35,874 nt of DNA, from the IMG/VR virus record IMGVR_UViG_2913172373_000003, positions 1-35,874 of that record; one strand, written 5' to 3'. Positions within the stretch are counted from its first letter, which is position 1, and the number at the start of each line of letters is the position of its first letter. Source of the DNA: a virus (taxonomy: Duplodnaviria > Heunggongvirae > Uroviricota > Caudoviricetes). Made by a program: the position numbers and the translations under genes. This document shows, one piece after another, positions 19,579-20,631 of this stretch. Below the pieces are notes generated by a model. The model had not been told where the DNA came from. It was given only the letters and a program-made list of their open reading frames with translations, and did no database searches.

Positions 19579-20631
19579 TTATTTCCCCACCAGCTCGTTT
19601 ATCTCTTTCACTGTCTGGTTAAACCGCTCTGACTCAAGCTCAACACCTAAGGCCCGACGCCCCAGCGCCATTGCTGCTTTTATTGTGGAACCGGATCCCA
19701 TAAAAAAATCAGCAACCAGATCACCAGGTCGACTACTGGCATTGATTATTTGCCTGAGCATATCCGCCGGTTTCTCACACGGATGTTTACCCGGGTAGAA
19801 CTGAACGGGTTTATGCATCCAGACATCGGTATAAGGCACGGAGACTGATACGGAGAAATAGCGCCGGAGAGATTTAAACTCATCCAGCAATTCAGAATAT
19901 TTGCGATTCAGTGAATCATAAGATGCCACCAGCTGGTGGTGTGGTTGTTCCAGTTGTTGTTCCTGAAACTTCTCTGCCGCTACACGGGAAAACAGTGCCT
20001 GTAACTTCCGATAGTCAGCCTCATTCGGCAACTGCCACTGACTGGCACCAAACCAGTGGGAAACCATATTTTTCTTACCTGTGGCTTCGGCAATTTGTTT
20101 TGCCGTTATACCCAGTTCGGCACGAGCATCCCTGAAATACGATATCAGCGGTGCCATTATGTGCTGTTTGAGTTCCCTTTCTTTTGCCGCATAGCCATCA
20201 CTTTTGCCACGATATGGCCCCTGGTAATGTTCAGCAAACAGAACGCGCTCTGTGGCAGGAAAATATGCGCGCAGACTTTCTTTATTACACCCATTGCAAC
20301 GTCCGGACGGCTTCGCCCAGATGATATGGTTAAGCACGTTGAAACGTTCACGCATCATGATCTCAATATCAGATGCCAGGCGATGCCCACAGAACAGGTA
20401 AAGGCTTCCGGCAGGTTTCAACACCCGCCAGAACTGGGCCAGACAGTGGTTCAGCCACTTAAGGTAATCTTCGTCCCCTTTCCACTGATTGTCCCAGCCG
20501 TTGGGTTTCACCTTGAAGTACGGCGGATCGGTAACAATCAGGTCAATGGAATCATCAGGCAGGGACTGAATAAAATGCAGGCAATCAGCGTTGATTAAAT
20601 CAACACTGTTTATTTTTACAGTATTTTTCAT
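19579..20631 (-). CDS. DNA methyltransferase, beta-class (N6-adenine or N4-cytosine)
   Basis: 350 aa; N-terminal DPPY catalytic motif ([10 protein letters not shown]) and C-terminal AdoMet FxGxG motif (DFFMGSGST). Confidence 0.8.

Follow-up and report, generated by a model that had tools for sequence, protein, structure and literature searches.

The lambdoid prophage DNA analyzed here, a window of 35,874 nucleotides, encodes two stand-alone adenine methyltransferases that probably act at different times of lytic growth, a timing that we infer (Table 1). The earlier-acting enzyme is of a phage Dam type, and the other, probably a non-specific adenine methyltransferase of the M.EcoGII type, is encoded by the late operon's first large gene. 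Directly ahead of the late gene lies a leader RNA that is real, structured, noncoding, and exclusively linked to the M.EcoGII family, and that is apparently undescribed.

Table 1. Positions of the two methyltransferase genes and of the elements surrounding the late gene in the window
Feature	Positions	Strand	Basis and remarks
Phage N6-adenine methyltransferase (early), T1/HP1/VT2/SfV-Dam family, 217 aa	24693..25346	-	PF05869, TIGR01712
Antiterminator Q	21787..22152	-	PF06530, 2.1e-51; called as a 121-aa gene on the source contig
Candidate late promoter pR' (TTTACA, 16 nt, TATGCT)	21163..21190	-	Consensus scan only
Candidate tR' intrinsic terminator (CCGCCGC-TGA-GCGG hairpin, then T7)	21108..21129	-	Terminator scan
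67-aa winged-helix-like ORF (SfV orf47 equivalent)	20782..20985	-	phrog_331, 3.1e-26; first gene after tR'
Conserved structured leader RNA (5' UTR), with its end at the start codon of the methyltransferase gene	20628..20760	-	Covariance model
Late methyltransferase gene, 350 aa	19579..20631	-	M.EcoGII-family beta-class N6-adenine DNA methyltransferase, WP_131162410.1
Codon 61, AAC (Asn); family Asp, GAC	20449..20451	-	Family alignment
Codon 112, TGC (Cys); family Trp, TGG	20296..20298	-	Family alignment
Terminator-like hairpin and T run, methyltransferase stop to holin start	19547..19572	-	Terminator scan
Holin, first lysis gene downstream	19296..19511	-	PF04971, 3.6e-35; gene call of 71 aa

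That two methyltransferases of different classes and architectures are present had been proposed in a preliminary description of this DNA, and both Pfam matches and motif order support it. The late enzyme matches Pfam N6_N4_Mtase (PF01555) at 146.3 bits (E=1.7e-42; gathering threshold, 26.7) and is assigned to the beta class because its motif IV (DPPY, residues 35 to 38) lies N-terminal to motif I (FxGxG; FFMGSGS at residues 309 to 315, with FMGSG at 310 to 314). It aligns with M.EcoGII over the full length at ~80% identity (280/349 residues, 2 gaps), a value that is not proof of identical specificity, and the two proteins are colinear, with no recognition domain inserted or replaced. The M.EcoGII sequence used was that of Table S1 of PMC11551740, taken from a PDF read by machine in which a few misreadings are evident. 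Identity to Orf48 of phage SfV is 97%, and identity to reconstructed ancestors of the family is 87.5% for Anc291, 85% for Anc289, 69% for Anc284, and 61.5% for Anc250; these pairwise values suggest that the enzyme may belong to a clade below active ancestors. Each ancestor that was purified showed in vitro activity on both DNA and RNA, and M.EcoGII, Anc291, and SUPREM displayed no sequence motif when tested on RNA (PMC11551740). M.EcoGII accepts A in every context, can methylate up to 99% of dA in vitro, and blocks many restriction enzymes; the lysogen does not express it, and its expression is deleterious (Murray et al. 2018, PMC5778455). In published methylome papers on E. coli, prophage homologues of M.EcoGI and M.EcoGII are listed as "nonspecific" and inactive or silent in lysogens, and homologues 92 to 99% identical to M.EcoGI are already among those listed as nonspecific. 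For such a family the NCBI name, "site-specific DNA-methyltransferase," is misleading.

The surroundings of the late gene are those of an M.EcoGII-type enzyme. The gene follows Q and precedes the holin, endolysin, and Rz genes, and the neighboring gene calls agree with the preliminary description on this point, as they do on the nin region location of the Dam-type gene. Our assignment of pR' draws on a weak consensus match, from a scan that returned 7 promoter-like sites versus 5.0 expected by chance, and on a position between Q and tR' that fits the lambdoid layout. The sequence of tR' is conserved with an annotated SfV terminator, in contrast to the promoter regions, which diverge between the two and vary with the type of Q. 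A second annotated SfV terminator occupies the same place as the hairpin between methyltransferase and holin. NCBI gives homologues of the 67-aa ORF the name "TrmB family transcriptional regulator." In the established Stx-phage paradigm (PMC7547250), pR' is constitutively active and its transcripts are terminated in lysogens. The conserved tR', together with the published data on homologues, suggests that the late gene would likewise be silent in the lysogen. The absence of a new methylated motif, put forward earlier as a refutation of the two-methyltransferase proposal, is badly matched to the late enzyme: methylation without specificity leaves no motif to find, and a lysogen would be expected to keep the gene silent.

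The early enzyme is identical in sequence to WP_000066917.1. Its 217 aa are counted from an ATG start; a GTG at 25379 opens the longest ORF. The protein matches Pfam Dam (PF05869) at 155.7 bits (E=1.1e-45; cutoff, 28.1) and NCBIfam TIGR01712 at 255.6 bits (cutoff, 97), and it contains FGNPPYS at residues 84 to 90 (NPPY at 86 to 89), with a motif-I-like FVLDLFTDG (44 to 52) 34 residues before NPPY and no recognition domain in between. The label "Dam-family" given to it previously holds for the phage T1/HP1/VT2 type of PF05869 and fails for the E. coli Dam family (alpha class; MethyltransfD12, PF02086), as only PF05869 was matched. The gene sits in a nin-like region, between replication and PerC genes on one side and genes for LexA-like, RusA, KilA-N, and DUF968 proteins and Q on the other. 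SfV Orf41 is identical to the early enzyme at 215/217 residues (99%), and one E. coli copy is identical at 217/217. Orf41 is said to have been confirmed experimentally as a Dam methylase by Allison and colleagues in 2002. Its depositors annotated it as dam in GenBank, and the other papers searched make no statement on Orf41 activity. M.EcoVT2Dam (VT2-Sakai orf32), of the T1/HP1 Dam family, shares the HMM family, the NPPY motif, small size, and nin region location, but it has 175 aa versus 217 aa and only 31% identity; it is listed as GATC in a published E. coli methylome paper, and a literature search on PF05869 enzymes yielded nothing beyond that listing. From the Orf41 identity and this listing, the early enzyme is most likely GATC specific. 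Among phage protein families, phrog_33262 matches, with its first half, the NinC-like protein of the window (31863 to 32750) and, with its second half, the Dam-type enzyme. A fusion of PAPS reductase and Dam was sought and none was present among the top 120 Dam homologues, pointing to a clustering or annotation artefact or to a rare fusion; "phosphoadenosine phosphosulfate reductase" is a wrong label that has spread onto SfV-type Dam proteins.

The pairing of a late M.EcoGII-type enzyme with an early SfV-type Dam is already known and ordinary. The same 6.1-kb two-methylase module is present in 516 of 5,426 complete E. coli genomes, as well as in SfV and Stx phages; paired orphan methyltransferases are common in enterobacterial lambdoid prophages and the biochemical type of each class is established, so that the finding as first stated matters little. 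The order dam, LexA-like, RusA, KilA-N, DUF968, Q, terminator, small ORF, methyltransferase, terminator, holin is the same in SfV (U82619/NC_003444) and Stx2a_WGPS2. SfV differs from the window in its Q and promoter region, and the lipoprotein-like ORF that the window has on the opposite strand between Q and pR' is missing from it. Phages of Klebsiella, Citrobacter, and Serratia likewise carry the methyltransferase gene between Q and holin, and a Salmonella prophage keeps the small ORF and the methyltransferase, with no Q or holin identified beside them. M.EcoGI and M.EcoGII, from prophages of E. coli O104:H4 C227-11 (PMC5778455), resemble the late enzyme in class, size (349 to 350 aa), and domain content and, like it, are prophage-borne orphans of a very large enterobacterial prophage family; some 20% of residues differ. 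As the preliminary description stated, no restriction endonuclease gene is adjacent: no neighbor of either methyltransferase matches such a model in Pfam, PHROGs, or PADLOC, and the absence of a cognate Type II partner by these collections is not absolute, as restriction enzymes are diverse.

The leader is the sole match of its covariance model in the window (147.7 bits, E=1.4e-37). In 86 sources searched, 65 of 67 matches at E<=0.01 are directly upstream of a methyltransferase ATG, the other two being weak and off position, and the leader precedes M.EcoGII-family genes across Enterobacterales. Between 85 and 89% of cells are paired, compared to 31 to 47% in slid controls, and compensatory changes occur in 22 to 26 pairs, values reached by none of 500 shuffles. 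The covariation counts, with slid-partner controls, were taken from the model-based alignment because MAFFT and RNAalifold applied to 115 unique leaders gave a gap-ridden alignment and a poor consensus structure. For the outer pairs of helix P4, neither the register of the first model nor the proposed pairs 111-133 and 112-132 are supported. Some 5 nt separate the end of helix P5 from the AUG, and a Shine-Dalgarno sequence is not apparent. Rfam 15 yields no match in the window at gathering thresholds, and the leader itself has no match when the cutoff is relaxed to E<=10. The leader does not behave as a small ORF, given an in-frame stop in the Klebsiella copy, indels of 1 to 2 nt, and no frame open in more than 46 of 115 copies. 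Nor is it an EHEC anti-sRNA, as those are 51 to 60 nt long and lie downstream of the moron coding sequence. The 67-aa ORF is found ~147 to 153 nt upstream of the methyltransferase ATG in roughly 40 of 65 leader loci and is absent from about one third of the loci that keep leader and methyltransferase.

In the mechanism that we consider likely, the two enzymes would serve phage DNA in succession. The early enzyme would be transcribed with the early right operon and would most likely methylate GATC on replicating phage DNA. In the lysogen, pR' transcripts would stop at tR', and the toxic late enzyme would therefore be silent. Upon induction, Q would allow RNA polymerase to read through tR' into the winged-helix ORF, the ~130-nt leader, and the methyltransferase gene, which would be expressed just before the lysis and packaging functions. 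Progeny DNA would then be broadly N6-methylated before packaging, and in the next host many restriction systems of Types I, II, and III would be blunted. The preliminary description had regarded both genes as anti-restriction or epigenetic modules and had left the specificity of the late enzyme open. A protective or epigenetic role is indeed what the literature proposes for characterized relatives, and protection may hold for both enzymes here; as to specificity, the ~80% identity to M.EcoGII offers a probable answer. The literature searched gave no account of how extensively such enzymes methylate virion DNA in natural infection. Hia5, Hin1523, and Nma1821 of Mu-like prophages are also phage-borne and adenine promiscuous, and they occupy the Mu position of mom, a late broad anti-restriction function (Drozdz et al. 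2012, PMC3299994); unlike the late enzyme, they are alpha class, with the opposite motif order and unrelated sequence.

Several other readings of these genes deserve consideration. It is highly improbable that the late enzyme is a sequence-specific methyltransferase with a motif of its own, as was first assumed. The NCBI family name, the ~20% of positions at which it differs from M.EcoGII, and the presence in the same wider lineage of M.PflMI, the closest enzyme with confirmed site specificity, would fit such a reading, but it is colinear with M.EcoGII and has no inserted or replaced recognition domain, its identity to Anc291 exceeds that of M.EcoGII itself to many family members, ancestors down to ~61% identity are active with Anc291 and SUPREM motif free on RNA, and close M.EcoGI homologues are listed as nonspecific. 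A physiological RNA substrate, such as host or phage rRNA or mRNA, instead of or besides DNA and perhaps directed by the winged-helix protein, is very unlikely. [quoted passage not shown] The authors of the SUPREM study, however, deem the DNA activity the likelier biological one (PMC11551740), and the small ORF is missing from about a third of the loci. The late gene is also not that Stx-phage gene, which shares prophage residence and an upstream winged-helix partner but belongs to the MT-A70 family and lies at the int-proximal end. For the early enzyme, we regard it as unlikely that the specificity is other than GATC or that the role is mainly regulatory, in replication or lysogeny control, rather than protective. 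The low identity to M.EcoVT2Dam leaves room for this, as does the fact that GATC in E. coli is methylated by host Dam anyway, an enzyme also cited as required for stable 933W lysogeny. Its near identity to the dam-annotated Orf41 argues for GATC specificity, and so does its score on TIGR01712, an equivalog-level model that M.EcoVT2Dam also matches.

Another reading is that this particular copy is weakened or dead through W112C and D61N, by decay or by selection against a toxic enzyme, and that the gene adds nothing in this prophage, which we consider possible but doubtful. All 114/114 full-length family representatives have W112, so that the allele may be weakened; D61 is found in 112/114, and both residues are kept in a Serratia phage homologue of 62% identity. 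The closest copies in complete E. coli genomes have W112 and D61, and 3/5 nucleotide differences from the nearest of these are nonsynonymous. The exact sequence is recorded once in a collection of 15 billion proteins, in Escherichia sp. E10V4, and assembling run SRR8061821 independently gave the allele again. The window copy departs from the family at both positions, but its ORF is intact and full length, its catalytic and SAM-binding motifs, DPPY and FxGxG, are unchanged, and leader, terminators, and neighboring genes are intact. Structure does not help to decide: PDB sequence searches place W112 in the loop after the "IIWxKPSG" strand and nothing finer, and the AlphaFold2 model has a mean pLDDT of 66, falling below 50 at residues 99 to 144 and 255 to 285, so that W112 is not placeable and its structural role not readable. 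M.EcoGII had no experimental structure as of the 2024 SUPREM paper (PMC11551740). The singleton allele is a natural test of an invariant residue in an enzyme widely used for chromatin footprinting.

The chances appear about even that M.EcoGII-family genes, rather than standing as lone morons, form a conserved three-part cassette of winged-helix ORF, ~130-nt leader, and methyltransferase in which the leader is a cis-regulatory RNA, not described before, by which translation of the toxic enzyme is limited or gated. The com-mom operon of phage Mu is a comparable system, as a late, toxic, broad adenine-modifying gene is there preceded by a small ORF and by a structured leader next to the start codon. 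Com, a zinc-finger RNA-binding protein, binds that leader and opens a hairpin that occludes the start site. The small ORF of the window instead bears, through its homologues, the name of a TrmB-like winged helix and is not Com-like, and the leader also occurs without it. Possible modes of action for the leader are activation in the manner of Com and mom, autoregulation by an enzyme that methylates RNA, and sensing of SAM or SAH. If the leader is regulatory, it could provide a compact control element for the expression of M.EcoGII-type enzymes, and it would account for phages carrying a genome-wide adenine methylase that does no harm before late infection.

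The two DNA methyltransferases of this prophage both fall in characterised families, and their pairing, already noted for Shigella phage SfV, is a real but ordinary finding. The window has the same sequence as contig RHJN01000035.1 (Escherichia sp. E10V4, assembly GCA_004323665.1). It is a lambdoid prophage running in reverse: tail, head and terminase genes lie at the left, followed by lysis, Q (antiterminator), nin, replication, immunity and early-left genes. The preliminary description had placed two methyltransferase genes here, one of them between Q and the lysis genes, with no restriction endonuclease gene adjacent. 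Domain searches recover both genes (table), Q and the holin gene flank the late one, and no restriction endonuclease model matched the neighbours or the other ORFs scanned in the window. The motif order of the late enzyme is that of the beta class, DPPY (residues 35-38) preceding FMGSG (310-314). The early enzyme, with FGNPPYS at residues 84-90, scores 255.6 bits against NCBIfam TIGR01712 (cut-off 97), and its gene adjoins a PerC-like gene, then LexA-like, RusA, KilA-N and DUF968/HNH genes.

Positions of the methyltransferase genes and other features of the prophage
Feature	Position	Strand	Remarks
Holin	19296-19511		downstream of late methyltransferase, as are DUF1327 ORF, endolysin and Rz
Second terminator-like hairpin	19547-19572		after methyltransferase stop codon
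Late methyltransferase	19579-20631	-	350 aa; Pfam N6_N4_Mtase, E=1.7e-42
W112C, D61N sites	20296-20298, 20449-20451	-	late methyltransferase; invariant, near-invariant positions
Structured leader, ~130 nt	20628-20760	-	five helices; directly upstream of late methyltransferase
Winged-helix-like ORF (SfV orf47 equivalent)	20782-20985	-	67 aa; ~150 nt upstream of methyltransferase in many genera
Candidate tR' hairpin, then seven T	21108-21129		~40 nt downstream of promoter-like site
Promoter-like TTTACA-16-TATGCT (candidate pR')	21163-21190		
Lipoprotein-signal ORF (LSATIISGC; phrog_3152)	21256-21702	+	148 aa; between Q and late promoter
Q	21787-22152		upstream of late methyltransferase on coding strand
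Early Dam-type gene	24693-25346	-	217 aa from ATG; Pfam PF05869 'Dam', E=1.1e-45
Phage_ASH ORF	26872-27708		
C4 antisense RNA	27160-27247	-	Rfam, 80.7 bits
isrK	27272-27348	-	Rfam, 61.2 bits
Early-left operon	30383-34487	+	
NinC-like PAPS-reductase-family protein	31863-32750	+	early-left operon
phrog_13343 ORF	34830-35378	-	182 aa; adjoins SocA/Panacea ORF
SocA/Panacea antitoxin-domain ORF	35401-35874	-	cut by window end

The specificity of the late enzyme can be predicted from its relatives, and the preliminary description's claim that it is unknown is not supported. M.EcoGII, a prophage-encoded 349-aa beta-class enzyme, modifies adenine whatever the surrounding sequence, methylating as much as 99% of dA in vitro, and accepts single-stranded DNA and RNA as further substrates (Murray et al., PMC5778455). 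The late enzyme matches it at 280 of 349 residues with two single-residue gaps, the reference sequence having been extracted from a machine-read PDF (SUPREM paper, PMC11551740, Table S1) in which a few letters are evidently misread. Identity to reconstructed ancestors of the M.EcoGII family is 87.5% for Anc291, 85% for Anc289, 69% for Anc284 (SUPREM) and 61.5% for Anc250; the purified ancestors all work on both DNA and RNA, and no sequence motif was seen for Anc291 or SUPREM on RNA (PMC11551740). E. coli methylome papers list prophage homologues of M.EcoGI and M.EcoGII as "nonspecific" and transcriptionally silent. In the lysogen M.EcoGII itself is silent, and its expression does harm; its family is described as "very large" in E. 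coli prophages and enterobacterial phages (PMC5778455). The late gene occurs in 1,265 of 5,426 complete E. coli genomes, near relatives extend across Enterobacterales, and SfV Orf48 is 97% identical.

The early enzyme shares all 217 residues with WP_000066917.1, a protein common in E. coli, and 215 of 217 with SfV Orf41. The depositors of SfV labelled Orf41 "dam: DNA adenine methylase" and marked -35/-10 signals belonging to it. The 2002 description of the SfV genome reportedly recorded multiple methylases, with orf-41 experimentally confirmed as a Dam methylase. The TIGR01712 equivalog model is common to the early enzyme and M.EcoVT2Dam, which are only 31% identical to each other; the latter is listed as GATC (E. 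coli methylome paper). The earlier "Dam-family" label stands as regards PF05869 and TIGR01712 but does not extend to the E. coli Dam (D12/alpha) family. Membership of that family was rejected, as no recognition domain lies between the motif-I-like FVLDLFTDG and NPPY, 34 residues further on. RefSeq names Orf41 and its homologues "phosphoadenosine phosphosulfate reductase," a wrong label that appears to derive from the composite profile phrog_33262, the first half of which matches the NinC-like protein of the window and the second half the early Dam-type enzyme. No NinC-like/Dam-type fusion was found among close homologues of the early enzyme.

Elsewhere in the prophage, the early-left operon also encodes enzymes of nucleotides and nucleic acids, namely DUF2303, YfbR-like 5'-deoxynucleotidase, DUF551 and Rv2179c-like 3'-5' exoribonuclease proteins. 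The C4 and isrK RNAs, inside or adjoining the Phage_ASH ORF, form a P1/P4-type immunity RNA module beside a CI/Cro-type switch, and the SocA/Panacea and phrog_13343 ORFs may be a toxin-antitoxin or defence pair.

SfV has the same layout gene for gene, the shared order being dam, LexA-like, RusA, KilA-N, DUF968, Q, terminator, small winged-helix-like ORF, methyltransferase, terminator and holin. The candidate tR' hairpin is conserved with the annotated SfV terminator, while the promoter region varies along with Q type, as expected if a Q-specific pR'/qut site precedes a tR' that is shared. The ORF on the opposite strand between Q and this promoter lies in a low-GC island (0.39) and is a typical moron. 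PMC7547250 describes pR' of lambdoid and Stx phages as constitutively active, with termination in lysogens and read-through solely in the presence of Q. From this we infer that the late gene probably stays off in the lysogen and is switched on late; M.EcoGI/II and M.EcoMV, published as silent, agree with this (PMC5778455; E. coli methylome paper). Klebsiella, Citrobacter and Serratia phages also have the late gene between Q and holin; in Salmonella, the single locus examined has both small ORF and methyltransferase, with Q and holin not identifiable beside them. Phage Stx2a_WGPS2 has the same order as SfV but differs in carrying tRNAs and stx2 inserted after the methyltransferase. In many Stx2a phages (H97-H113, e.g. 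NC_008464 59743-59841), all that is left of the methyltransferase is a 34-aa C-terminal piece upstream of the tRNA/stx cassette, which suggests that the toxin cassette displaced the gene in these phages.

The only new material, a leader RNA cassette and a private allele of the late gene, is incidental. The leader occurs only next to M.EcoGII-family genes, Enterobacterales-wide (L001, L004, L005, L009-L066 and viral loci L094-L213). A covariance model built from seven sequences and searched against 86 sources (E<=0.01) gave 67 matches, 65 of them ending at the methyltransferase start codon; the other two, from Photorhabdus, are weak (18.9 bits, E about 0.008) and off that position. Across 64 distinct sequences, pairing holds in 85-89% of cells, against 31-47% with partners slid by 1-3 columns. 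Changes on both sides occur in 22-26 pairs. In 500 shuffles the values observed were never attained; covariation is strong in helices P2, P3 and P5, with compensatory changes in nine of ten P2 pairs. An unbiased pattern scan of viral contigs returned at least 120 stretches; among the matches listed, 111 of 120 precede an M.EcoGII-family ORF (58-99% identity) starting 53-55 nt past the pattern, two run off a contig end and seven are chance resemblances. The leader is non-coding, and no Rfam 15 family matches it. About 5 nt separate the end of P5 from the AUG; no Shine-Dalgarno sequence is evident, and a conserved UGAUC lies 2 nt upstream of the AUG.

The small ORF precedes the leader at about 40 of 65 loci; its homologues carry the NCBI label "TrmB family transcriptional regulator." It is mosaic, its middle part varying between conserved flanks; where it is replaced, the leader persists. 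The window, SfV and an ETEC prophage share an identical 150 nt between small ORF and methyltransferase, and the spacer measures 150 nt in Klebsiella and Citrobacter and 132 nt at the Salmonella locus. Com-mom control in phage Mu resembles this arrangement in outline only.

Relative to its nearest copies in complete E. coli genomes, the late gene carries D61N (GAC to AAC) and W112C (TGG to TGC). Trp112 is present in 114 of 114 and Asp61 in 112 of 114 full-length cluster representatives, and a Serratia phage homologue at 62% identity keeps both. This exact allele (WP_131162410.1) appears only once in the public protein collection and was recovered again in an independent assembly of run SRR8061821. 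Position 112 lies in the loop directly after the '[10 protein letters not shown]' strand, a region where the AlphaFold2 model is unreliable. Judged from sequence conservation, the allele may be weakened.

The 6.1-kb stretch from holin to Dam-type gene occurs in 516 of 5,426 complete E. coli genomes (>=80% coverage) and in SfV, 1720a-02, PhiR phages, vB_EcoS-569R4 and Stx2c phages. In a Klebsiella prophage (L009/L010 1441-2085), the partner of the late M.EcoGII-type gene is an MT-A70 methyltransferase adjoining Q, in place of a PF05869 enzyme. Under the mechanism we propose, the Dam-type enzyme would methylate GATC on fast-replicating phage DNA in early lytic growth, and Q-dependent read-through would later supply the M.EcoGII-type enzyme for broad adenine N6-methylation ahead of packaging. 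Methylated in this way, progeny DNA would resist many Type I, II and III systems but become sensitive to m6A-dependent nucleases, and late control would be tight because the enzyme is toxic. An early GATC-type methylase combined with a late non-specific one appears to be a recurring design, and the pairing of an early methylase of whatever type with a late non-specific one may be general.
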